Assembly: GCA_963808235.1 (NCBI GenBank)
Contig: CAWEEQ010000004.1
Coordinates: forward strand, 3,008,001 to 3,072,000
Reading direction: 5' to 3'
Source of the DNA: an uncultured delta proteobacterium
GTDB taxonomy: Bacteria > Desulfobacterota > Binatia > Binatales > Binataceae
Length of the DNA: 64,000 bases
Below the pieces are notes generated by a model. It was not told the origin of the DNA. It saw only the letters and a list, made by a program, of their open reading frames with translations, and made no database searches. Below are positions 1 to 12,103 of this stretch, one piece after another. Position 1 is the stretch's first letter, and every line of letters begins with the position of its first letter. The position numbers were made by a program, and so were the translations under genes.

Positions 1-607
1 TCAGCGCCGAGAGACTGCAAAAATAAAATAACTCCGGATCGAAGAGTCCGAGCTTCGCTTCCTCGGAGGCGGCGCGCTTGCGAATGACGTACAGCTTGCG
101 ATCAAGCGCCTCGACATCGTTCACGCCCGGGCCGCGCGCGATGAAAACCTGGCGAATTGCGGGGAGCCCGCGCCGTGCGATCTCTCCACACGCCGACTCG
201 ACGATCGGCACGTCGCGCCACCCGAGCAGGCGCTGGCCTTCCTCATTTACGATTCTTTCAAATGCGTCCTCGCAGTCTTTGCGTTTAACTGCGTCCAGCG
301 GCAGAAAAACCTGGCCGACGCCGTATTCGCCGGGAGCTGGAAGTTCAAAGCCGAGCTTCGCCGTTTCGCGCGCGAAAAAGTCGTGCGGAATCTGGAGCAG
401 AATTCCAGCGCCGTCACCGGTACGAGGATCGCATCCGCATGCGCCGCGATGGGTCAGGTTGTCGAGTACCTGCAGCGCCTTCTTGACGATGTCGTTGGAG
501 CGCTCGCCCTTTATATTCACGACGAAGCCAACTCCGCACGCGTCGTGCTCATGCGCGGGATCGTAGAGACCTTGTGCCTTCGGGATGCTTCGATGTTTAT
601 GCATCAT
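1..607 (-). CDS. gltB: Glutamate synthase large subunit, N-terminal part (runs off window)
   Basis: Manual translation MMHKHRSIPKAQGLYDPAHEHDACGVGFVV...HRGACGCDPRTGDGAGIL is the classic GltB amidotransferase N-terminus. Start overlaps the Lrp stop (TAATG). Absent from the ORF track. Confidence 0.95.
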   Translation of the reverse strand, partial: MMHKHRSIPKAQGLYDPAHEHDACGVGFVVNIKGERSNDIVKKALQVLDNLTHRGACGCDPRTGDGAGILLQIPHDFFARETAKLGFELPAPGEYGVGQVFLPLDAVKRKDCEDAFERIVNEEGQRLLGWRDVPIVESACGEIARRGLPAIRQVFIARGPGVNDVEALDRKLYVIRKRAASEEAKLGLFDPELFYFCSLSAL

Positions 608-1167
608 TACCCCCGTCTCAGATCGGGGAGCGCTGATTTCGCCGACGCGTGACGACTCCGCTTGCCGTTGGACGAATTCTCCGCGTCGCCGTTGGCATGC
701 ACCGAGATCAGTCCGCGCTCGGTATGCGTCGAGAGCACGACCATCGTCTCGGTCCGCGACACTCCCTCGATCGAACGGATCGTGCTGATCAACCGTTCGA
801 GCGACGAAGTGTTGTCGGTTTTGATTTTCAGCATCAGCGTGTGCTGCCCGGTGACGTGATGGCATTCGAGTACGTCTTCGAGCATCGCGACGGTCTCTTC
901 GAAGAGCGCAATTGTTTTCGGATGGGAAATCGAAACGCCGATGAACGCGGTCACGTCCTTGCCGAGCCGGCTCGCGTCGACCGACGCGTGGTAGCCGGTG
1001 ATGATCGCGCTGTCCTCGAGTTTCTTGACGCGCTCGTTGACCGACGGCGCGGAGAGGCCGACCTGGTCTCCGAGTTTGACCAACGGGATGCGCCCGTGCT
1101 CCTGCAGGAGGTTAATAATCTGCAGGTCAATAGCGTCGAGTTCGGGGGAATCTCCACCGAATTTCAT
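607..1167 (-). CDS. Lrp/AsnC family transcriptional regulator
   Basis: LDAIDLQIINLLQ..GR..LGDQVGLSAPSVNERVKKLE HTH plus ECHHVTG RAM domain. Confidence 0.95.
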   Translation of the reverse strand: MKFGGDSPELDAIDLQIINLLQEHGRIPLVKLGDQVGLSAPSVNERVKKLEDSAIITGYHASVDASRLGKDVTAFIGVSISHPKTIALFEETVAMLEDVLECHHVTGQHTLMLKIKTDNTSSLERLISTIRSIEGVSRTETMVVLSTHTERGLISVHANGDAENSSNGKRSRHASAKSALPDLRRG

Positions 1168-1193
1168 AAGGTTATCCTCGTGGGGTGACGACG

Positions 1194-1222
1194 AACTTAG
1201 TAGGGAAACAGAATTGTGTCAA
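1194..1222 (-). promoter_or_regulatory. Putative sigma70 promoter for lrp-gltB
   Basis: Minus strand TTGACA-N17-TAAGTT in an AT-rich intergenic region, 27 nt upstream of the lrp ATG. Confidence 0.6.
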
Positions 1223-1443
1223 GTGTTTATAAGGTGATAGCCAAATAAAACAGTTGTTTATGAAAATCCCGTGTCACTCTACCGATGAACTTTAGGCAGG
1301 AAGGCTCCACTGCCATTTACTCGACATGCGAATCGGGTCGGCAAGTTTCTATGGCACTAGTGCGAACGAAAACCAGCCGAACATTAGGAAACGGAGGAAC
1401 GGGGCTATTTTCTGAGCGTATCGTCAAGCCGCGCGCACGAGTG

Positions 1444-2877
1444 TTACGAATGCGGATATGCGTCGCTGCCCATTTCCAGCGCGTCGAGTCCCGACCATTC
1501 CACTTCGACCAGCACGCGGTTGCCGATCGTTCGCTCTATGATCATGAAGAACAGCATCGCGAGGCCGAACACGACGATCAGGTTGACCGTGACGCCAATC
1601 AATTGCGCGAAGAATTGCCCCGGGTCGCCGTAGAGAATGCCGCGCACCGGACCGGCCACGCCGTTCCATCCGTCCCCGTAGGTTCCGTCGGCAAATAGTC
1701 CGAGTGCGAGTGCTCCCCAGATTCCGCACGCGCCGTGCACCGCGATCGCTCCGACCGGATCGTCGATGCGAAGCCGGCGCTCGAGCTCGATCACTGTCCA
1801 GACAACGATGAGGCCGGCGACGACGCCGATCAGTACCGCGGCCGCGGGCGTGACGAATGCGCACGGCGCCGTTATCGCGACTAGTCCGCCGAGCAAGCCG
1901 TTGGATGCCATCGCGATGTCGGGTTTGTTGAATCGATGCCACAGATAGAGCAGCGCTGCGAGTGCGCCGGCCGCCGAGGAGAGCATCGTGTTCACCGCGA
2001 TGATCGCGATACGGGGATCTGACGCGGCCAGAGTCGAGCCGCAGTTGAAGCCGAACCATCCGAAGGCGAGAATCAGCGTTCCGCTCACGGCCATCGGCAG
2101 ATTGTGTCCCGGCAGCGCGCCGATCGCGCCGTCGCGGCGGAACTTTCCGATTCGCGGTCCCACCATGTACGCGCCCGCCAGCGCGGTCACGCCGCCGGTC
2201 ATGTGCACCACTGAAGATCCGGCGAAATCAAGATGGCCATGTCCAAGTCCGAGATTCATGCCGAGCTGAGAGAGCCATCCGCCGCCCCATACCCAGTTTG
2301 CGTAAAGCGGGTACAGAAACATCGACATGAACAGCCCGTAAACGAAGAACGCTTTGAACTTCCATCGCTCCGCCATCGCGCCGGTCGGAATCGTCGCCGC
2401 GGTATCCATGAAGACCAGCGAGAACAGGAACATGCCGAGGCTGCCAGGATCGCGGCTCACATTGAGCAGCGCGAACTTGCTGAAGCCCAGAATCCCGTAG
2501 GAGTGCGACCCGATCGTAATGGAAAGTTCGCGATGCCCGATTGCGCTACTGCCCAGCGAAGGCCAATGCGCGACCCCGCCCATCATGAATGCGTATCCAG
2601 TCAGCCAGAATCCGATGATGCCGATCGGATAGATGATCAGATTCATCGCCATGGTGTTGACCGCGTTCTTCGAGCGGGTGAATCCCGTCTCCACCATCGC
2701 GAATCCGAGCTGCATGAACATCACGAGGAAGCCCGCGACCAGCAGCCATGCGAGGTTGAGCGAGTTGTCCAGCGGCGGCGACGACGCGGCGGTCTGCGCG
2801 CGCGCCGACGACGAAAATAAGATCACCACGGCGAAAGCGGCGGCGCCAAATACGAGATGCGTTCGTCTGGGAATCAT
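1444..2877 (-). CDS. amtB: Ammonium transporter (Amt family), copy 1
   Basis: FMQLGFAMVETG, DFAGSSVVH, WFGFN, DDPVGAIAVHG motifs. The ATG at 2877 overlaps the kinase stop (ATGA), so it is preferred over the ORF-track start at 2943. Confidence 0.95.
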   Translation of the reverse strand: MIPRRTHLVFGAAAFAVVILFSSSARAQTAASSPPLDNSLNLAWLLVAGFLVMFMQLGFAMVETGFTRSKNAVNTMAMNLIIYPIGIIGFWLTGYAFMMGGVAHWPSLGSSAIGHRELSITIGSHSYGILGFSKFALLNVSRDPGSLGMFLFSLVFMDTAATIPTGAMAERWKFKAFFVYGLFMSMFLYPLYANWVWGGGWLSQLGMNLGLGHGHLDFAGSSVVHMTGGVTALAGAYMVGPRIGKFRRDGAIGALPGHNLPMAVSGTLILAFGWFGFNCGSTLAASDPRIAIIAVNTMLSSAAGALAALLYLWHRFNKPDIAMASNGLLGGLVAITAPCAFVTPAAAVLIGVVAGLIVVWTVIELERRLRIDDPVGAIAVHGACGIWGALALGLFADGTYGDGWNGVAGPVRGILYGDPGQFFAQLIGVTVNLIVVFGLAMLFFMIIERTIGNRVLVEVEWSGLDALEMGSDAYPHS

Positions 2878-3890
2878 CTCAACTGACCTCGGTAAGACCG
2901 GCGCGCCGGAGTTGACGCAGCCGGGTAACGGTTGGCGAGCCAAATCAAAAAAATGAAAATTCCGATCAGCGAGCTGAAGAAGAGCCCGTATACAATCCCG
3001 CGCCGCACTCGTTGCATCGCGAGACTGCGCGGATGCAAGTGCTTCGCGCGGCCCTTGGGCACGACCCGCGAGGGATCGCGAAGATCCTCGAGCATTTCCT
3101 GGGCGCTCGCGTAGCGGTCACGCGGTGCGCGCTCGATCGCATGCAGGATGATCTCTTCGAGATGCGGATCGATATCCGGCTTGAATGCGCTCGGCGGCTG
3201 CGGATCCTCCGCGGTCTTCGAGCGCATCACGTTGTACACGTTGGGACCCGAGTAAGGCAGATTGCCGGTCAGCATCTCGTAGAGGATCACGCCGAGCGAA
3301 TAGATGTCGGTGCGAACGTCGCCGCGCCGCCCGCTGACCTGCTCCGGCGCCATGTAGTCCGGGGTTCCGATCGTCGAGGAAAGACCGGACCAGGTGAGCC
3401 GCCGCGCCGATTCGTCGAGCGCGATTCCGAAGTCCATGATTTTCGTCTTGCCCTCGGCCGTGATGAGCACGTTCTCCGGTTTCAAGTCGCGATGCACCAC
3501 GCGCTCGCCGTGCATGTACACGAGCGTCTCGCAAATCTGGCACGCAATATCGAGCGCCTTTGCGGTCGGTAACCCGCCGGCTTCGCGCATCGTGGCGCGC
3601 AGCGAATCACCTTCGATGTACTCCATCGCGATGTACATCCGGCTCTTGCGCCGAGGTTTGAGCACCTTGACGATCCCGGGATGGTTGAGGCGCTGCCCGA
3701 CTTCTTCTTCGCGTTGGAAGCGGCCGTAGAAAACAACGTCGCTCTCGAACTGCATGTAGGGAACTTTTATCGCGACGGTTGCGCCGCCGATCTGATCGAT
3801 AGCCTTGAAGATCGACGCCATTCCGCTGCGCGCGATCACCTCGGTCAGTTTGTACTGATCGAGGCTTTCACCGACGCTGACCTCGCGCAT
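2874..3890 (-). CDS. Hanks-type Ser/Thr protein kinase with C-terminal TM helix
   Basis: VAIK, HRDLKPEN, DFG, GTPDYMAPEQ motifs; hydrophobic GIVYGLFFSSLIGIFIFLIWLA near the C-terminus. Confidence 0.95.
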   Translation of the reverse strand: MREVSVGESLDQYKLTEVIARSGMASIFKAIDQIGGATVAIKVPYMQFESDVVFYGRFQREEEVGQRLNHPGIVKVLKPRRKSRMYIAMEYIEGDSLRATMREAGGLPTAKALDIACQICETLVYMHGERVVHRDLKPENVLITAEGKTKIMDFGIALDESARRLTWSGLSSTIGTPDYMAPEQVSGRRGDVRTDIYSLGVILYEMLTGNLPYSGPNVYNVMRSKTAEDPQPPSAFKPDIDPHLEEIILHAIERAPRDRYASAQEMLEDLRDPSRVVPKGRAKHLHPRSLAMQRVRRGIVYGLFFSSLIGIFIFLIWLANRYPAASTPARRSYRGQLR

Positions 3891-3985
3891 GTTTGGGGCC
3901 GTCCGGGAAGAAGAGGCGGTTAGCGCAGGCTAACATCGCGCGGACTCGGCAGGCAATGCGGACGCGGTCGAAATCCCGCGTCGCT

Positions 3986-4819
3986 TCATCGCCCGAATAG
4001 TCCGCGCAGTCGCTCCCGCCATCCGCCGGTCGACGCCGTATGGCCGGTCGGCGCCGTCATTTTGAAAATCGCGCAAGTCAGGTTGTCCGCGGTTCCGCGC
4101 TGATTTGCTGCCTCGACCAGCTTGCGGCATCCGGTTTCGGCGTCGCAGTCGCGAGTCAGCGCTTCCAGCTGGTCGGGCTCGATCACGTTGTAGAGTCCGT
4201 CGCTGCACAGGATCAGGCGATCGCGTTCGACGAGCGGCATCGAGATCCTATCGATCGAAACGATCAGCTCGTGACCGAGACTTCGCAGCAACATCCCGCG
4301 TTCCGGATGATCCTTGGCCCGCGCCGCGGACATCAGACCCATGCGGACGCGGTCGGCGACCATGGTGTGGTCCTTGGTTATCTGGGTGAGATGGCTGTTG
4401 CGGATCAGATGCAAGCGGCAATCTCCGACGTGCACCGCGGAGAGAATCCCCTTATCGACTGCGACCGCAGTCAGCGTCGTCGCCATCCGGCACAATTCGG
4501 GTACGATCAGCGCCTTGTCATGAATCTCGATATTTGCGCGCTGGACCGCGCGATGGAGCCGCTTCGATGCTCCCCACTCGACCGGGCTTTCGCGAAAAGC
4601 CTCGAGCGTGACATCGATTGCGATGCGGCTCGCAATTTCGCCGCCCTCATATCCGCCAACCCCGTCGGCAATCGCGAATACGGCCGAGTCCGCATTCTCG
4701 ACAAAGTGCCCGCAGGAATCTTCGTTATTGCGTCGCTTGGTACCAATGTCGGATAGCAGCGCCAAATCGAAGGCCTGCTCGATGGAAGGCGGAGCGGCGG
4801 GCAAAGGTTCCATTGTCAA
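3986..4819 (-). CDS. PP2C/PPM-family Ser/Thr phosphatase
   Basis: RRNNED, ADGVGG, TTLT, HVGD, LCSDGL, DNLT motifs. Confidence 0.95.
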   Translation of the reverse strand: MTMEPLPAAPPSIEQAFDLALLSDIGTKRRNNEDSCGHFVENADSAVFAIADGVGGYEGGEIASRIAIDVTLEAFRESPVEWGASKRLHRAVQRANIEIHDKALIVPELCRMATTLTAVAVDKGILSAVHVGDCRLHLIRNSHLTQITKDHTMVADRVRMGLMSAARAKDHPERGMLLRSLGHELIVSIDRISMPLVERDRLILCSDGLYNVIEPDQLEALTRDCDAETGCRKLVEAANQRGTADNLTCAIFKMTAPTGHTASTGGWRERLRGLFGR

Positions 4820-4877
4820 TCAGCTTACCCGGAGATCGCGTGCTCAGGAAAATTCGGTCCACTTTGAAAATGGCCAA

Positions 4878-4907
4878 GGGCGGGCCGCGATCGCTCGCGG
4901 CTCGCCC
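4878..4907 (-). terminator. GC-rich hairpin between APC permease and PP2C genes (weak terminator or mRNA-stabilising stem)
   Basis: gggcgggccgcga-tcgc-tcgcggctcgccc inverted repeat; no strong U-tract. Confidence 0.4.
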
Positions 4908-4944
4908 ATGGAATTATTCGCCAATCCAGCTTGAGTTTCGGGTA

Positions 4945-6612
4945 TCAGGCCGGCTTGGTTACCAGGATAGTTTCCTTCCCACGTCGCTTCGAATTTCGCA
5001 TGAAGTAGATCGCGCCATAGACACCCCAGATTACCGAGAGCGCGACCGCGATTAGTGGCTCCTTCACGCTGCCGAGTCCCTCCAGCGGTCCAATGATGTA
5101 GAAGGCGAGGCACGCGAAGTTCGCGACTGCGCCGAATACCGGTATCACCATGTGCTTGAGGCCGTGGAACTCGTGACGCTCCTGGTAGGCGACGATGCAG
5201 ACGATGTTGGTCAGCCCATAGAGCAGGAACGTTCCGAAGTTCGAGGTCAGCGTCACCAGCAGCAAGCCGTTGGGCAGCGCTGCGAGTGAGGCGTTCGAAC
5301 TCATCCCGATCGCGTACCAGAAGTTATGCGGAAGCGTTGCGATCGTTTTGTCATCGGGAGCCGAGCCGCCCGCGAAATAAAAGAGCGCTGCATAGGCGCC
5401 AATCACTGCCGAGATTGTGGCGAGCACCCAGATCGCGCGATGCGGCGTCAGGTTCTCGCCATGCAGCAAGCCAAAGTGCTCCGGCACTTCCTCGTCACGG
5501 CCCATCGCGTAAGTCACGCGCGCGCCGGTGTTGATGCAGGAGAGCGTGGTGCCGATCAGCGCGAGGAATACCGTCAACGCTTCCATCAGCATGAACGCCT
5601 GGCCGTGGCCGCCCATCAGCGCATTGCCGATGATCACCATCATGTCGCCGAGCGGGGCCGCGGAACCTTTGGCTGCCCCGAGACTGTAGGCGCTGTTCAG
5701 GAAGTAGTTGGCCGCAAAGTATTCGATCAGGTAGCAGAACAAACCCTGAATCGTGAGCGACAGAAGTACTCCGCGAGGAATATCTTTCTTCGGGTTGATC
5801 GCTTCTTCGCCGAGCGCGGTGACGGATTCAAACCCGACCAGCAACAGAATCGCGACCGTCGCCTGCAGCATCACCCAGTCGAAACGATGCGGCAGGATGA
5901 CCGATATTGCGCTCGCGTGCGAGGGATTGTCTCCGCCGAAACCGTACTTGACCGCGGCTGCGACCGTGTTGCCGTTAACATCGAGGCCGAGGCCCATCGA
6001 GCCATGCGGATGCGCCATGCGATAGGCTACCGCCAGCGCCGAGAAGAACAGCAGCGCTACGATCTGGATGCCGTTGATTGCGATGTTGACCATCGTCGAG
6101 CCGTTCACGCCGCGAAACGCGATCCACGCAACTGCGAATGCGAAAATGATCGCGATCAACGCCATGAAGACCGGTCCCGGAATCGACGCGTTGATCGTGT
6201 TGGGCGCGACGTTGCCCACGATGTATCCGATCATGATGCCCATCGTCGCGACCATCACTCCCGGATAAATCCAGTAGTAGAGATGCGACGACCAGCCGAT
6301 CACGAACTTCGCGATACGCGCGAACCTGTAGGCTTTGGTCTTGTTGAGGAACGCCTGCTCGGCGAACAAATACGAACTGCCCGCGCCGGGATACAGCTTG
6401 GCCAGTTCCGAGTACGAGATTGCGGTTGCATACGCGAGCAGCAGCGCGACGAAGATACCGGCCCACATCGCCAGTCCCGACGGGAACGCGTAGCCAGCCT
6501 GCTGGACGAACGTAATCCACAGGAAGGCTCCCGGCGCGATCAGCGCCATCGCGTTGACCGTCACCCCGGTCAGGCCAAGGGTCGGCACCATTTTCTTTTG
6601 TTCTTCAGCCAT
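4945..6612 (-). CDS. APC-family amino acid/amine permease
   Basis: Polytopic hydrophobic protein; YSELAKLYPGAGSSY, GFESVTALGEEAINPKKDIPR, ARVTYAMGRD motifs. Confidence 0.92.
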   Translation of the reverse strand: MAEEQKKMVPTLGLTGVTVNAMALIAPGAFLWITFVQQAGYAFPSGLAMWAGIFVALLLAYATAISYSELAKLYPGAGSSYLFAEQAFLNKTKAYRFARIAKFVIGWSSHLYYWIYPGVMVATMGIMIGYIVGNVAPNTINASIPGPVFMALIAIIFAFAVAWIAFRGVNGSTMVNIAINGIQIVALLFFSALAVAYRMAHPHGSMGLGLDVNGNTVAAAVKYGFGGDNPSHASAISVILPHRFDWVMLQATVAILLLVGFESVTALGEEAINPKKDIPRGVLLSLTIQGLFCYLIEYFAANYFLNSAYSLGAAKGSAAPLGDMMVIIGNALMGGHGQAFMLMEALTVFLALIGTTLSCINTGARVTYAMGRDEEVPEHFGLLHGENLTPHRAIWVLATISAVIGAYAALFYFAGGSAPDDKTIATLPHNFWYAIGMSSNASLAALPNGLLLVTLTSNFGTFLLYGLTNIVCIVAYQERHEFHGLKHMVIPVFGAVANFACLAFYIIGPLEGLGSVKEPLIAVALSVIWGVYGAIYFMRNSKRRGKETILVTKPA

Positions 6613-6738
6613 CTTCCCTCCTCGAATCGCAAAGCGCGGTCGGGACCTGCGCTTTGGGTGCTCCCGTTACGGGCGGGAACCAAAGAGGCGTACAGCACGA
6701 AAAGTGCCATTGAAATTGGCCCGATCAATAGTGAAAAA

Positions 6739-6754
6739 AGCAATGCCAATGCCC
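6739..6754 (-). promoter_or_regulatory. Putative sigma54 (-24/-12) promoter for APC-PP2C-kinase-amt
   Basis: Minus strand GGGCAT-TGGCA-TTGCT (GG-N10-GC), about 130 nt upstream of the APC start. Confidence 0.65.
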
Positions 6755-6832
6755 AAGCGATGGGCATCCGCCTATCAAGTAGTCATCAGCACGCGATGGT
6801 TCGTTCTTTGTGCGACCGATGCCGCGTCGGGC

Positions 6833-7078
6833 TCAGCTAGCTGCGACGATGGCGCGGGCTACCAAGGCTGGAAGTTCGATCGTCATAAAGCAGCTTTCGG
6901 GGAATAGATAGTCTTCGCCGGATTCATCAACCACGCGCACTAGCCGGTGCCCCTCGGCGACCGAGTCGGGAACGACTCTGTAGACCTTGCGGAGTTCAAG
7001 TGATGCCGCGAAACCTCGGTTCCGGACACAGACCACAAAACGAGAATTTCCCGCGCGGTGTTTCAAGATTCCTTTCAA
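6833..7078 (-). CDS. Small conserved hypothetical protein
   Basis: ASLELRKVYRV...RVVDESGEDYLFP resembles a widespread uncharacterised small-protein family (recalled, not searched). Confidence 0.7.
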   Translation of the reverse strand: MKGILKHRAGNSRFVVCVRNRGFAASLELRKVYRVVPDSVAEGHRLVRVVDESGEDYLFPESCFMTIELPALVARAIVAAS

Positions 7079-7148
7079 GATTCCGAGGATAATAGGCGGC
7101 GGGTCACTCCGAAAGACAATACGCCGTCATCACTTTGCGCGATTCATT

Positions 7149-7640
7149 TTAGTTGCCGCATCTCTCCAGCGATTCAAATTGCCAATTGGCCAGTCGATAC
7201 ACCAGGCCGAGCGACTTGAGTTTCATCCCGAGCGACCCGGCCGTTGCCGCCGCGGCTTCCGCGCGGGTGACTATCCCGGCAACGATTGGATCTCCGGAAG
7301 CCGGGTCGAGCACCCGCAGCTCGATCTCGTCAGTATCGGGCAGAGTTGCGAACAGCCGGGAGATCGCGGCGTCGACATCCTGGAGGCATTGCTGCACGAA
7401 TAACTGCGCGGCCCGCTCCGGAGGCACGCCGCGATCCCAGGGATGAATTTTTCTTGCGTGCCATTCGACTTCGAGCCGATTGCGCATCCTCTTGAGCGAA
7501 AGGCCGTCGTTGCGAATTCCCGCCCGACGATTAACCTCGAGCGCCCCGATCACCTTGCGCCGCAGTCGCTGCTGAGCCAGATAGGTTACAAATTTTTTCG
7601 CTGCGCTTATCACAATCCGGTTCCATGCTCGGGCCGGCAC
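7149..7640 (-). CDS. Hypothetical protein
   Basis: 163-aa ORF with natural composition, co-oriented within the nitrogen locus; start uncertain. Confidence 0.6.
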   Translation of the reverse strand: MPARAWNRIVISAAKKFVTYLAQQRLRRKVIGALEVNRRAGIRNDGLSLKRMRNRLEVEWHARKIHPWDRGVPPERAAQLFVQQCLQDVDAAISRLFATLPDTDEIELRVLDPASGDPIVAGIVTRAEAAAATAGSLGMKLKSLGLVYRLANWQFESLERCGN

Positions 7641-7754
7641 GAGTCGTTGGCTGAATACCGACTCGGGCCGGCCCGTCTGCTTCGCGCACTTTAGATGACT
7701 TCCCGCAAAGCCATCGGTGCAGTTAAAAGTTAACCGTTCACTTCGAAGGCGCGA

Positions 7755-9317
7755 TCAGCTTGCCTCCTTCATCTTGATTTTCGGAAGCTTCACGCCGGTG
7801 CGCCGGCCGATTGGTACGTCGTCGATAGTCTTCGGGCACCCGTCGTCACCGTTAACCACATATTCCGGGTACGCCGGGAATCCGTGCTCGTGCAAGTCGA
7901 GTCCTTCAATTTCTCCCTCGGTCGGAATGCGCAGTCTGAAGCTCCACTTGATTGCGTACATAAGGGCCATCGAGACAACGAAGGTCGCGATCGTGATCGA
8001 AAAACTTCCGATCATCTGCGCCTTCAGAACCCCAAAGCCGCCTCCGTAAAAGAGGCCGGTAACAACACTGCTAGTGTCCGCGCCCATCGCGGTCGGCGCG
8101 CCGTACTTGCCGGCAGCGAACAGCCCCAGCGACAGCGTGCCCCAGATTCCCGCGATCATATGCACCGGGACCGCCCCGATAGGATCGTCAATGCGCAGGT
8201 ATTCGAGCAGGTCGATACCCCAGACCACTACGATTCCAGCGCCGATTCCGAGCAGGAACGCGCCCTCGGGATCGACCCAGTAGCAGGGGCAGGTTATCGC
8301 AACCAGTCCGGCCAGGAATCCGTTGACGGTCAGCGCCAGATCCCACTTCTGACCCTTGATGTACGAATAAAAGAGCGATGTCAGGCCCGCCGAGCAGGCT
8401 GCTATCGTCGTGTTGAACGAGACGCGGCCTATGCCTTGTGCATCCATGGCCGAAAGCGTGCTGCCTGGATTGAACCCGTACCATCCGAACCACAGGATGA
8501 GTCCGCCGGTCGCACCGATGATCAAGTCGTGTGGCTTCATCGGTTGACCGCCGTCGCGCTTGAACACGCGTCCGAGCCTGGGTCCGAGTGCGATTGCGCC
8601 CGCCAGAGAGATCGTTCCGCCGATCGTATGGACCACGGTCGATCCCGCGAAATCGTGAAAGTTAACCGGGTTCAGATTCGCCAGCCACCCGTCCGGACCC
8701 CATGCCCAGTGACCGATGATCGGATAGATGAAGCCGGTGACGCCGACGCTGTAGAGCAAGTCGCCGATAAAATCGCAGCGACCGATCATCGCGCCCGAGG
8801 TAACCGTCGAGCAGGTGTCCGCGAATGCATACTGGAATACCCAGTACGCGAGCAGCGGAACGCCGGTGGTGCCGTACGTCGGCGCGAGGCCATGCAGCAT
8901 GAAGCCGGTGGTGCCAATCCATGGCGTTCCCGGACAGAACATGAATGCGAAACCCCACAGCCAGAACGTGACACCGCAGATGCAGGTGTCGGCGATACCT
9001 TCCACCAGGATGTTGACCGTCTCACGTGACCGGGCAAATCCCGACTCCAGCATCACGAATCCAACCTGCATGCAGAAAACCAGGTACGCGGCGACCAGCG
9101 TCCACACCGTATTGATCGCGTTGATATGCGGCGGCGGTAATGCCGGCGCGGTGTCGGCATATGCCGAGGCCGGCAGATACCACTTCGTGATCAGTAACAG
9201 CACCAGTCCGAGCCCGATCATTTTGCCGGCCAATAGCGATCCCGCGTTGCGGCGGACCATCGGGTCACGCCATGCTTCGCGGATCCTCTGCGGTAATCCT
9301 ACTAATCCTGAGTACAT
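7755..9317 (-). CDS. amtB: Ammonium transporter (Amt family), copy 2
   Basis: MQVGFVMLESG, DFAGSTVVH, WYGFNPGS, DDPIGAVPVH, EGLDLHEHG motifs; GGAGGGAG RBS before the ATG at 9317. Confidence 0.95.
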   Translation of the reverse strand: MYSGLVGLPQRIREAWRDPMVRRNAGSLLAGKMIGLGLVLLLITKWYLPASAYADTAPALPPPHINAINTVWTLVAAYLVFCMQVGFVMLESGFARSRETVNILVEGIADTCICGVTFWLWGFAFMFCPGTPWIGTTGFMLHGLAPTYGTTGVPLLAYWVFQYAFADTCSTVTSGAMIGRCDFIGDLLYSVGVTGFIYPIIGHWAWGPDGWLANLNPVNFHDFAGSTVVHTIGGTISLAGAIALGPRLGRVFKRDGGQPMKPHDLIIGATGGLILWFGWYGFNPGSTLSAMDAQGIGRVSFNTTIAACSAGLTSLFYSYIKGQKWDLALTVNGFLAGLVAITCPCYWVDPEGAFLLGIGAGIVVVWGIDLLEYLRIDDPIGAVPVHMIAGIWGTLSLGLFAAGKYGAPTAMGADTSSVVTGLFYGGGFGVLKAQMIGSFSITIATFVVSMALMYAIKWSFRLRIPTEGEIEGLDLHEHGFPAYPEYVVNGDDGCPKTIDDVPIGRRTGVKLPKIKMKEAS

Positions 9318-9405
9318 CAGATCGTCTCCCTCCAAGTTTGATTTTGGCGTTGGCCTGCGCGCCCCAGCCGGCGCGAACGGACGCGGACTTCGCGCCCAGC
9401 AGTGG

Positions 9406-9421
9406 AGCAACTGCGATGCCA
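9406..9421 (-). promoter_or_regulatory. Sigma54 (-24/-12) promoter for amt copy 2
   Basis: Minus strand TGGCAT-CGCAG-TTGCT, near-consensus TGGCAC-N5-TTGCW. Confidence 0.8.
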
Positions 9422-9465
9422 TGCAAATTGCAGCTATTTCAAAACAGGAGATCGTGCACTTTGCA
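9422..9465. promoter_or_regulatory. Two TGCA-N3-TGCA motifs (candidate activator sites)
   Basis: TGCAAATTGCA at 9422-9432 and TGCACTTTGCA at 9455-9465, directly upstream of the sigma54 promoter. Confidence 0.45.
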
Positions 9466-9565
9466 CGATTTGCAGGCATACGGCGACTGCGGAGTCATCA
9501 CTGGAGGAAGTGTCTATACCGCGCGCAAATGGGCAAGGCAGTGAAGCAAAGTGGAAGAGACCAGC

Positions 9566-11095
9566 CTATTTTGCTCGCGAGCGCGGAACACCCAGCGCCA
9601 CCATCAGCAGAGGACTTTTGCCCGCGGCGTGCGGCGCGAAAAATTTTGTCGTGTCGTCGTCATAGAAAGTAAGTCCCGTCGCACCGCGGCCGAGCGAGTA
9701 CGCGGCCAGGTAGGCGCGGCCTCCCAGAATTCCCGCTTCGAGATGAGCTTCGCCGTAGCCGCGATTTCCGAATGCGCCGAGCACGCGCTCGAGGTCCGTC
9801 ATGTAAACGACCAGCGCGCTGCAATCCATTCCGAGCGGCTGCTCGAGGCACAGGTATCCGGCCTCGCCGCGGAAGTTGCCCGGTTTCAGCAGCTCGAATC
9901 CGCGCTCGCGCCGATTGTAGTAGTACGCGCCGGACTCCATCCCGCTCGCCGCGTTGACGATCAGGTAGGTATCGGTCAGGGGCGGAAAGTCGGCGCGCGG
10001 ATGCTCACTCGAGGCGGCCATGATAGTGGCGAGTTCCTCCGCGGTGATCGCGTCCTGGGCAAACGCTCGCGTCGAGCCGCGGCGCAAAATTGTCTCGCCG
10101 AGGCCAATCGCCTCTTCGGGCTCGATCACGTTGAAGCGACGCATCCCGATGGCCGGATGCTCTGGCCTGGGTTCGAGATTTGCGTTTGCGACCAGCCCGA
10201 CCTCGTCGGCGGTCACCAGGCGCGACTCGCGATGTATCTTCACCAGATCGTTGTAGACCACCTCGCTCGCTGAGAGTGGAATCGTTTCAAGTTCGAGCGG
10301 CGAAAGTGCCGGCGACGGTGCGGCCGGCTCTTCCGAACCGCCGAGCGCAATCAGCACGACCATCCCTTCTCGTTCGCCGTCGATTCCGAGCAGCGTCTCG
10401 AGTGCCGGATCCTCGAAAGCGGTAATCACTTCAGCGGAAATTCCGTCCGCCGCGGCTGCGGCAAGCAGATTCGCGAGCATCGTGCCCGCGTCCCAATAGC
10501 AATAGCGATAGGCCCGCGCGCGATACTTCCATTCGCTTCGCCAATAGATCGCGGTGAGCGCAATCACCGCGCTCGCGCGCCCGATCGACGGACGCATCGC
10601 GGCCGCTTTTGCCAGGTACTCGCGCCAGTCCCCGCGCCGAAGACCGGTCATCCGCAAATCCGCGGGCGAAAAGTGATAAAGGCCGGCCTCCAGTCCTTCG
10701 ACCGCAGTCGCGCTCACGTAAATCTCTATCGGGTAGAGCGCGCCGGCCGATGGCGCCGCGCGAAAATGGTAATCCTCGTTGCCGACGCGCTTTTGCCGCG
10801 TGAGTCCGTCGGCGCAGAACAGTATCCGGGTGAGCGCGGCAATATCGACCGGCGCGGACGACTGCGGCGCCGGACTCATCTCAAGCGCGGCCAGAGTGGG
10901 CATCGCCGCCAGGTTCAGATCGCGTGGCAGCGCGACCGATGCGGCGCCGGGATAGATCTTGTACGGGATCGGCTTGTTGTCCCAGTCGAGAATATGCGGC
11001 GACGAACGAACGCTCGTGTAGGAGTGCTTGGTGACCTCGTGAAAAACGCGAGCCGCCTCGATGTATTCGTTGCCCAATTCGATACCTCGCACCAT
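9566..11095 (-). CDS. SagB/ThcOx-like FMN nitroreductase-fold dehydrogenase, tandem domains
   Basis: RAAPSAGALYPIEIY, WKYRARAYRY..DAG; second domain RRGSTR...GATGLTFYDD. Confidence 0.88.
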   Translation of the reverse strand: MVRGIELGNEYIEAARVFHEVTKHSYTSVRSSPHILDWDNKPIPYKIYPGAASVALPRDLNLAAMPTLAALEMSPAPQSSAPVDIAALTRILFCADGLTRQKRVGNEDYHFRAAPSAGALYPIEIYVSATAVEGLEAGLYHFSPADLRMTGLRRGDWREYLAKAAAMRPSIGRASAVIALTAIYWRSEWKYRARAYRYCYWDAGTMLANLLAAAAADGISAEVITAFEDPALETLLGIDGEREGMVVLIALGGSEEPAAPSPALSPLELETIPLSASEVVYNDLVKIHRESRLVTADEVGLVANANLEPRPEHPAIGMRRFNVIEPEEAIGLGETILRRGSTRAFAQDAITAEELATIMAASSEHPRADFPPLTDTYLIVNAASGMESGAYYYNRRERGFELLKPGNFRGEAGYLCLEQPLGMDCSALVVYMTDLERVLGAFGNRGYGEAHLEAGILGGRAYLAAYSLGRGATGLTFYDDDTTKFFAPHAAGKSPLLMVALGVPRSRAK

Positions 11096-11176
11096 ACCGA
11101 TCGTTCAATTGACAAGAGCGCGGTCGGGCGTGCTATACGAAAATTTCCGCGCGCCCGCGCACCAGGAGAGTTTATC

Positions 11177-12103
11177 ATGGCTCGGAAACTGACGCCTTCG
11201 GACGTGAAAGGTTTGTTCGAGAAGCTGAGCAATTGGGGCCGCTGGGGCAAGGACGACGAACGCGGCGCGCTCAACTTCATCACCAACCAGAAACGCGCGG
11301 CCGCGGCCCGGCTCGTGCAAACCGGAGAGACCATCTCGATGGCGCTTCCGCTCGCTACTATTCCGGCAGCCGACAATCCGATGCCAGTGACCCATCTGAT
11401 GGTTCAAGCCGGGACCGACGCGCACGAGCAGGCGCTACCCTATGCCGGCGACTACTTCGCGATCGCGCCGCATGGAATGGCGAATACTCATCTCGACGCG
11501 CTCTGCCATGTGTTCTGGCAAAACAAAATGTACAACGGTTTCGACGCCAAGGAAGTCGGCTCGCACGGCGCGAAAAAGTGCGCTATCGACGTCACTCGCG
11601 CGGGTGTCTTGAGTCGTGGCGTTCTGTTGGATATTCCACGGCTCAAAAAAGTCGAGTGGCTCGAGCCGCGCGATCCGATCTTCCCCGAAGATCTCGACGC
11701 CGCCGAGAAGGCGCAGCGCGTTCGCGTCGAAGAGGGCGACGTCCTGCTGGTCCGCACAGGACGCTCGACGCGACGCAAGTCGAAAGGCGGATGGGATCCG
11801 ATGGGTGTCGGCATGCCGGGGCTCGATGCGAGTTGCTTGCCGTGGCTCCACGAGCGGAAGATCGCGGTTCTTGGCAGTGATGCGGTGAGCGACGTGGTGC
11901 CGAGCGGATACGACGGAATCCTCCTCCCGATTCACGTCGGAACCCTGGTCGCATTGGGTATACATCTGATCGACAACGCGGATTTCGACGCTCTGTCAGA
12001 GACATGTGCGCGCCTTGGACGAAGCGAATTCATGTTCTCGATGAGCACGCTCATCCTGGAACGCGGCACCGCATCGCCGGTCAATCCCCTGGCAATATTC
12101 TGA
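11177..12103 (+). CDS. Cyclase family (kynurenine formamidase-like) metal hydrolase
   Basis: NWGRWGKDDERGALN, THLDALCH, RGVLLD, GDVLLVRTG, SPVNPLAIF; GGAG RBS before the ATG at 11177. Confidence 0.9.
   Translation: MARKLTPSDVKGLFEKLSNWGRWGKDDERGALNFITNQKRAAAARLVQTGETISMALPLATIPAADNPMPVTHLMVQAGTDAHEQALPYAGDYFAIAPHGMANTHLDALCHVFWQNKMYNGFDAKEVGSHGAKKCAIDVTRAGVLSRGVLLDIPRLKKVEWLEPRDPIFPEDLDAAEKAQRVRVEEGDVLLVRTGRSTRRKSKGGWDPMGVGMPGLDASCLPWLHERKIAVLGSDAVSDVVPSGYDGILLPIHVGTLVALGIHLIDNADFDALSETCARLGRSEFMFSMSTLILERGTASPVNPLAIF

Follow-up and report, generated by a model that had tools for sequence, protein, structure and literature searches.

Textbook accounts place the control of bacterial ammonium uptake with PII/GlnK proteins that plug AmtB, and phosphorylation of Amt proteins is regarded as a plant and fungal solution. 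What, then, are a Hanks-type Ser/Thr kinase and a PP2C/PPM-type phosphatase doing in one run of genes with an ammonium transporter, Amt1, and an APC-superfamily permease? The question is raised by a stretch of 64,000 nucleotides from an uncultured member of the Binataceae (C4:3008001-3072000; the window, by which we mean the whole stretch that was analysed). All parts of this module come from known families; its combination, its conservation, and the fusion of PP2C with a membrane-anchored kinase in a nitrogen-uptake context are new. From gene linkage, gene fusions, reading-frame overlap and co-occurrence, we consider a functional tie between the kinase/PP2C pair and nitrogen uptake very probable. 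That the pair sets the phosphorylation state of the transporters encoded beside it is our preferred reading, tentative and a little short of probable.

The kinase-Amt1 pair and its conservation in the family

A preliminary description of the window had proposed a co-oriented quartet of minus-strand genes in the order APC permease, PP2C, kinase, Amt1, followed by lrp and gltB, and open reading frames (ORFs) together with Pfam matches bear out this arrangement (Table 1). Amt1 covers its Pfam profile in full (PF00909, positions 1-399 of 399) and scores 383.6 bits against TIGR00836, whose cut-off is 343.3. The phosphatase lies above the Pfam gathering scores (PF13672, 57 vs 24 bits; PF00481, 38.3 vs 20.3 bits) and, at 210.7 bits, below the 230-bit cut-off of the NCBIfam Stp1/IreP equivalog. 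In an alignment of 74 kinase sequences (A1), the catalytic residues K42, D135, N140 and D153 are invariant, as are T166 of the activation loop and T176. The kinase is built as had been described, with one C-terminal membrane helix (residues 298-319) and almost no extracellular part: 19 residues remain beyond the helix, on which no PASTA or other extracellular domain was found, and the Stk1/PknB PASTA model NF033483 matches the kinase domain alone (293.3 bits, cut-off 450). This single-helix architecture is common to 78 orthologues, in which a juxtamembrane motif (V..TGR..RL) is kept along with the helix; among the Binataceae the short outer tail is conserved too. The kinase and amt1 reading frames share the four bases ATGA, again as described, an overlap that implies a putative translational coupling of the two proteins.

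Kinase orthologues (E up to 1e-70) are present in 97 of 120 other genomes of the family, or in 92 of 115 if five unpublished genomes, all kinase-positive, are set aside. In a sample of 150 further genomes of the phylum none has one at the same threshold, so the distribution is patchy and the kinase is not a phylum trait. Synteny was scored in 60 loci from Binataceae-like genomes, the five unpublished genomes excluded. Amt1 lies directly 3' of the kinase in 56 of these loci, PP2C lies 5' of it in 55 and the APC gene in 50, and lrp stands 3' of the module in 47; the gene order on which the preliminary description had staked its reading is thus kept in the family, and it recurs in many phyla (below). 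Among 55 family loci, 47 keep the overlap between kinase and amt, as ATGA or GTGA; in a cross-phylum set of 42 loci (the window included) it is found in 24, four Myxococcota-like loci among them. The family set and the cross-phylum set are not independent samples, as many of the 60 family loci belong to species that the other set contains too.

Kinase and Amt1 type are also absent together. Amt1 was used as a query against ten family genomes that lack the kinase and are at least 91% complete; with the unpublished G209 omitted there remain nine, at least 92% complete, and the Amt1 type was found in none of these nine. The best match to Amt1 reaches 45-54% identity in seven of them, vs 68-91% for kinase-linked orthologues, and the other two give nothing at E up to 1e-60. 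At the seven loci the nearest Amt has the canonical acidic C-terminal motif and a long tail, and in six of the seven a PII gene lies no more than 1.5 kb downstream; a separate amt-PII pair occurs also in three of five kinase-positive genomes. These surveys indicate that the Amt1 type pairs with the kinase and another Amt type with PII, and that both can share a genome. Two near-complete genomes (G257 and G214) have a locus of nitroreductase, kinase and Amt1 only, and no orthologue of the permease or of PP2C was found anywhere in either, which argues that kinase and Amt1 form the minimal unit and that APC and PP2C are lost as a pair.

Table 1. Features of the window (positions count from its first letter)
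Feature	Position	Strand	Remarks
gltB, 5' part	2 to ~607		after lrp
lrp (Lrp/AsnC-family regulator)	607-1167	-	3' of Amt1
Amt1	1444-2877	-	PF00909, E 9.5e-110; 477 aa
Amt1 Ser471 codon	1465-1467	-	in C-terminal motif EMG[S/T][D/E]AYP
Kinase-amt1 overlap ATGA	2874-2877	-	kinase stop TGA 2874-2876 shares bases with Amt1 ATG 2875-2877
Hanks-type Ser/Thr kinase	2874-3890	-	PF00069, E 3.8e-48; 338 aa
Kinase C-terminal membrane helix	2934-2999	-	residues 298-319; hydrophobic
PP2C/PPM Ser/Thr phosphatase	3986-4819	-	PF13672, E 2.6e-15; PF00481, E 1.5e-9; 277 aa
APC-superfamily permease	4945-6612	-	PF00324, E 4.7e-10; 555 aa
Permease Ser541 codon	4990-4992	-	in cytoplasmic C-terminal tail motif YF.R.S(K/R)(K/R).G(K/R)
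Sigma54-type site TGGCACTTTTCGTGCT	6694-6709	-	97 nt 5' of APC start codon; phylogenetically conserved
Second sigma54-like site GGGCATTGGCATTGCT	6739-6754	-	further upstream of APC gene; pointed out in the preliminary description
ORF, 81 aa	6833-7078	-	between Amt2 and permease; without Pfam or NCBIfam match
ORF, 163 aa	7149-7640	-	between Amt2 and permease; without Pfam or NCBIfam match
Amt2	7755 to ~9317	-	PF00909; start 9317 chosen from translation (range 7755-9479)
Sigma54-like site TGGCATCGCAGTTGCT	9406-9421	-	~90 nt 5' of likely Amt2 start 9317
Tandem nitroreductase/SagB-like gene	9566-11095	-	509 aa; two nitroreductase-family stretches

Recurrence of the module across phyla

With one genome taken per species there are at least 593 kinase relatives, and we examined the best 80 loci, whose kinases match at 44-85% identity, mostly over full length; neighbours were called by tblastn with the window proteins. 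The closest records carry the labels Binataceae and 'delta proteobacterium', and the others include Polyangia, Anaeromyxobacter, Geomonas, Planctomycetota, Verrucomicrobiota, Acidobacteria, Nitrospirota, Gemmatimonadales, Baltobacteraceae and Roseiarcus. Orthologues with APC and PP2C alongside occur in at least eight other phyla. PP2C is directly upstream of the kinase or fused to it in 57 of the 80 loci (43 of the 54 that have at least 5 kb on both sides, to which the second count in each bracket refers), the permease is in the locus in 56 (42), an Amt in 54 (40), and one or the other of these transporters in 65 (47). An Amt stands directly downstream on the same strand in 41 loci. A PII gene is in the locus in 20 (16), and 15 (7) have none of APC, Amt and PII. 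Recurrent neighbours belong to nitrogen assimilation (PII, glnA, gltB, BBP2/OmpL-type porins, more amt genes), further permeases are found as well, and a small YnfA-like membrane protein recurs between kinase and amt. The genes for BBP2/OmpL-like outer-membrane porins (PF07642) stand between APC and PP2C in six loci (L014, L015, L017-L019, L021) and 5' of APC in five (L058, L074, L081, L083, L084), an insertion that suggests a complete uptake route from outer to inner membrane.

At 32 of the 80 loci one ORF, about 600 aa long, encodes both phosphatase and kinase, in the order PP2C, kinase, membrane helix, and by manual count such fusions make up about 90 of the 120 best longer homologues. RefSeq labels one of them 'bifunctional protein-serine/threonine kinase/phosphatase' and the permease 'APC family permease'. 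Three family loci (L110, L117, L130) have a tandem PP2C pair between permease and kinase, with a PII gene encoding Ser49 first. The three top 'longer' matches, P0015, P0016 and P0017, would join kinase and Amt1, and we rejected them as probable assembly frameshifts across the ATGA junction: in all three, out-of-frame-looking sequence replaces the kinase membrane segment, and two lose the Amt frame later. Public predictions of this kind, from uncorrected assemblies, are a trap for domain-fusion mining.

Gene content, catalytic motifs and promoter site, the deep conservation of linkage and overlap, the fusions, and the co-occurrence of Amt1 with the kinase are features of the genomes themselves. 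One explanation would be that kinase and phosphatase are a nitrogen-regulated pair that shares the operon by chance and has its substrates elsewhere, for example in metabolism (GOGAT, GS) or in transcription (an NtrC-type activator or Lrp). In Actinobacteria, glutamate metabolism is under the control of PknG via GarA; among the 60 family loci, 47 have lrp and gltB behind the operon, and glnA is present in some loci. Chance sharing nevertheless fails to explain a four-base overlap kept across 68-87% kinase identity, the conserved membrane anchor, the joint loss of the Amt1 type and the kinase, and the recurrence of APC or Amt in unrelated phyla without adjacent lrp or gltB. We regard it as highly improbable, and of all the readings it is the worst fit to the data.

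Promoter and flanking genes

The preliminary description had also placed a sigma54-like promoter upstream of the APC gene. Sites of this type are there, but the conserved one is at 6694-6709, and the one that had been singled out (6739-6754) is retained only in the three closest relatives (L007, L008, L029). Scored against the consensus TGGCAC-N5-TTGCW with its GG-N10-GC core, the conserved site matches 10 of 11 specified positions and has the core intact. The whole window holds four matches with no more than one mismatch, vs 1.25 expected, and two of the four, correctly oriented, directly precede the genes for APC and Amt2. Of 50 family loci, 48 have an equivalent site no more than 300 bp 5' of the APC gene, vs 2.3% of random 306-bp windows, and a site stands 5' of the permease in 28 of 46 cross-phylum loci, vs a background of 4.5%. 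The genome has rpoN. A scan of positions 500-9800 for terminators and sigma70 promoters gave nothing above shuffled expectation, which leaves the operon boundaries putative, and Rfam had no match in positions 1-12000 (E up to 1), hence no known leader or riboswitch.

Amt2, 40% identical to Amt1 and with a C-terminal tail of about 40 aa, is probably a separate transcription unit. In locus L026 a PII gene follows the Amt2 orthologue, and none follows Amt2 here. The 163-aa ORF recurs only in few relatives (L008, 67%; L029, 88%; L094; L129) and occupies the position where a PII gene stands in some of them. The nitroreductase-family (SagB-like) gene lies upstream of the module in 35 of the 60 family loci.

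Candidate phosphorylation sites

Amt1 has a signal-peptide-like N-terminal segment and a short C-terminus that ends 10 residues past its GLD motif. Throughout its clade (Binatia and Myxococcota) this end reads NRV..EVEW.GLD..EMG[S/T][D/E]AYP, and at the position after EMG, Ser471 in Amt1 of the window, Ser and Thr interchange: 54 of the 55 family loci have one or the other, as do 33 of the 41 loci from the cross-phylum set. As read from the alignment, Ser or Thr stands at this position in 0 of 26 Amts that are not directly 3' of a kinase, and an acidic residue is visible there instead, as in canonical Amts such as AmtB. We single out Ser471 as a candidate phospho-acceptor. The preliminary description had cautioned that the phospho-Thr of the plant motif is Leu in Amt1 and His in Amt2, and this caution is sound (GLDALEMG in Amt1, GLDLHEHG in Amt2). 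The conserved Ser/Thr of Amt1 is near the plant phospho-site and not at the same position; it lies four residues beyond the plant Thr.

On sequence criteria the permease is a distinct, highly conserved APC subfamily. It passes the PF00324 gathering score (39.2 vs 24.6 bits) and is far below the cut-off of all NCBIfam subfamily equivalogs (for example TIGR00909, 85.8 vs 556.8); its best solved relatives reach E 8e-9 at most, and protein-atlas clusters name it only generically as 'APC family permease'. In an alignment of 44 permeases from many phyla (A2) the mean column identity is 57%, and the Ser541 position, within a basic tail motif, is nearly invariant (at least 90%) across phyla, which makes Ser541 a second candidate phospho-acceptor.

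Relative to the structure 6eu6, Amt1 has an insertion of about 24 residues (~101-124) after the second membrane helix, which by the topology of AmtB would be on the outer face. In the family the kinase has a conserved outer tail as well, NRYPA.P....RSYRGQ.K. Insertion and tail could be in contact. A complex prediction for the permease (A2) with the kinase (A1) scored 0.01 and 0.01, where the mark was 0.32, and is evidence neither for nor against an association.

A proposed phospho-switch on the transporters

In the mechanism that we tentatively favour, the operon would be driven by sigma54 under nitrogen limitation and would supply two uptake proteins, the APC permease and Amt1, and alongside them a dedicated switch that works by reversible phosphorylation, namely a Ser/Thr kinase held in the membrane by its C-terminal helix and a PP2C phosphatase. 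The kinase would neighbour the transporters in the membrane and be made in step with Amt1 through ATGA coupling; it would phosphorylate their cytoplasmic faces, PP2C would reverse this, and uptake would be gated post-translationally. The proposed sites are Ser471 in the C-terminal region of Amt1 and Ser541 in the permease tail. Kinase and Amt1 would be the minimal sub-module, and APC with PP2C a second one, losable as a pair. Which proteins associate, which are substrates and at which sites, and in which direction control runs, we infer from the features described above.

Several points weigh against this mechanism. The conserved Ser/Thr of Amt1 could be structural, and because the Amt1 clade is one lineage its conservation represents few independent events; the equivalent of the plant phospho-Thr is Leu. 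Co-production in fixed stoichiometry, as the ATGA overlap would provide, is needless for a kinase that acts catalytically; it fits a stable complex and equally a pair of sensor and transducer, and among the longer homologues there is no credible kinase-Amt fusion, the three candidates looking frameshifted. Nor does the mechanism account for what the kinase, which lacks a sensing domain, responds to. The reversible switch is not always encoded as a unit, because G257 and G214 keep kinase and Amt1 without PP2C and APC. Finally, loci labelled Nitrospirota, Geomonas and Baltobacteraceae have a PII gene after the kinase-linked amt, so that PII control and the kinase are not alternatives in general.

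Amt1 as a possible receptor

The missing input domain fits a different reading, a serious rival although we hold it to be on the unlikely side: Amt1, perhaps with the APC permease, would be a receptor (a transceptor) and the membrane-anchored, sensor-less kinase its transducer in trans. Ammonium binding or flux would alter the cytoplasmic face of Amt1 and toggle the kinase, which would phosphorylate other targets. Such a system would resemble the sensor Amts Ks-Amt5 and Sd-Amt1 split into two polypeptides, and feedback gating of the kind proposed for plant AMT1 may well accompany it. It suits a kinase without an input domain of its own, a membrane anchor and translational coupling that suggest a 1:1 complex, and a kinase-Amt1 pair that persists in G257 and G214 after PP2C and APC are gone. 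The solved structures closest to Amt1 by sequence are also those of sensors: 6eu6 (E 5.3e-66) and 8qj3 (E 5.8e-59) both outrank AmtB (E 6e-48). Yet Amt1 has no fused transducer, we found no natural kinase-Amt fusion, the cluster encodes no downstream target, and the FHA genes of this genome adjoin other kinases. Amt1 moreover has putative pore motifs of the transporter type (twin His, Phe gate, binding-site Ser/Trp): its translation contains DFAGSSVVH, AVHGACGIWG and GWFGFNCGS, which would correspond to D160/H168/H318/F215/S219 of AmtB.

That Amt modules have been reused as receptors is stated in two articles (PMC11152129, PMC10433425), and the first of these gives an N1/N2 receptor signature, QX6EX15NX2D[F/T]X54-60TX2[S/T]. 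In that form it is present in 0 of 41 kinase-linked Amts, which counts against a receptor role. Amt1 has the Q, E and N and then reads N-L-I-I-Y, I-Y replacing D-[F/T]. The N-terminal motif of Amt2 comes nearer to the same published pattern than that of Amt1, with Q, E, then G-I-A-D-T (Gly for Asn).

PII proteins and the module

The preliminary description had framed the operon as one with no GlnK. It was right about the immediate surroundings: PII (PF00543) has no match within the window, thus none beside either of its amt genes, and none of the genome's three amt genes (the third is on contig C1) has a PII neighbour. As a statement about the genome the framing falls. A full PII gene, the only one, lies about 159 kb past the window end (C4:3231224-3231541); its T-loop, YRGAEY, has Ala49 and the canonical Tyr51, and GlnD-like and GlnE-like ORFs are present. 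Because ordinary PII machinery is available in trans, it would be untrue to speak of an organism with no GlnK system. The absence of glnK does not extend to kinase orthologues in general either: a PII gene within 9 kb heads 10 of the 60 family loci, always as the first gene before APC and never directly after Amt1, and in other phyla it follows the kinase-linked amt (L071, L079, L081, L084). Two PII-like fragments of this genome, C4:3231637-3231744 (L002) and C2:218659-218748 (L003), cover the first 30-36 model positions each; one is directly upstream of the full PII gene and could be the remnant of a tandem PII gene.

These linked PII genes suggest another substrate. The kinase and PP2C might modify Ser/Thr49 in the T-loop of PII and reach the transporters only through it. 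PII genes are present in 20 of the 80 cross-phylum loci and in the 10 family loci just mentioned, and Ser/Thr49 is found in 10 of 10 operon-linked PII proteins of the family and 15 of 27 linked ones across phyla. As set out in PMC4285133 and PMC11863333, the cyanobacterial PII phosphatase is a PP2C enzyme and the corresponding kinase is unidentified. Set against this, the sole full PII of the genome has Ala49 and Tyr51, and its GlnD-like and GlnE-like genes make the uridylylation route available; 50 of the 60 family loci have no PII gene, and adjacency of PII and amt would be expected anyway. Ser49 also occurs in PII proteins that are not phosphorylated (PMC4285133), and 0 of the best 80 loci come from records labelled cyanobacterial. 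We judge a route exclusively through PII to be improbable.

Receptor and switch could finally be one thing. In a stoichiometric membrane complex of kinase and Amt1, Amt would report external ammonium or flux to the kinase, PP2C would reset the system, and the kinase would feed back on the transporters and on linked Ser49 PII proteins. We think this combination rather unlikely. If true, the complex would be an unrecognised and widespread route of ammonium sensing by Ser/Thr phosphorylation in bacteria, and the kinase would be the first candidate family for a PII T-loop kinase.

Significance

A kinase-phosphatase module is locked to amt across a family of soil bacteria, and Myxococcota, Verrucomicrobiota, Planctomycetota, Acidobacteriota, Nitrospirota, Gemmatimonadota and others have it too, in the company of an APC permease, amt and PII. 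This points to a second, phosphorylation-based layer of control over bacterial nitrogen uptake or sensing. Cultured organisms, Anaeromyxobacter oryzae or oryzisoli and Geomonas sp. Red32, have it, and concrete candidate sites can be named (Ser471 of Amt1, Ser541 of the permease, Ser49 of PII); if PII is a target, the module would bear on the long-open question of the PII kinase. In the main texts of freely accessible articles we found no description of a Ser/Thr kinase linked to this permease or to bacterial amt. The one kinase named in a review of prokaryotic Amts is the histidine kinase of Ks-Amt5.

Comparison with known systems

The sensor proteins Ks-Amt5, fused to a histidine kinase, and Sd-Amt1, fused to a HAMP-diguanylate cyclase, resemble the module in coupling an Amt to a signalling enzyme, and they are the closest solved sequences. 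They differ in that the signalling enzyme is here a separate polypeptide of another class, and that the N1/N2 signature of PMC11152129 is absent. Cyanobacterial PII phosphorylation with the phosphatase PphA shares a PP2C enzyme in nitrogen signalling, and PII proteins linked to the module often have Ser49, whereas the PII of this genome has Ala49 and the best 80 loci have no cyanobacterial member. Stk1/Stp1 pairs (PknB/PstP-type) likewise have a Hanks kinase and a PP2C enzyme adjacent, and these families supply the best NCBIfam models; unlike them, the pair described here has no PASTA domains, scores below both equivalog cut-offs, is often fused, and stands in a context of nitrogen uptake rather than of cell wall and division.

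Another precedent, from bacteria and archaea, is AmtB-GlnK, in which a regulator gene is tightly coupled to amt, under nitrogen control, and its product presumably acts close to the membrane on the cytoplasmic face of the transporter. The coupled gene of the module is by contrast a Hanks kinase 5' of amt and not a PII gene 3' of it, and the three amt genes of this genome have no adjacent PII, whereas other lineages have both.

In yeast one kinase, Npr1, serves both an Amt (Mep2) and an APC-type permease (Gap1). Both of these transporter families meet a kinase, and here a phosphatase too, in the operon, and in this it is like the plant AMT1-CIPK23/CPK32 and fungal Mep2/Gap1-Npr1 systems. Gating by C-terminal phosphorylation is described for plant AMT1;1, with a role for T460 (PMC13745463), and for fungal Mep2 (PMC4852598). 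The kinase of the window differs in being a membrane-anchored bacterial Hanks kinase of unrelated architecture, and the T460 equivalent in Amt1 is Leu. The arrangement across phyla nonetheless suggests that bacteria, like plants and fungi, can control ammonium uptake by phosphorylation.

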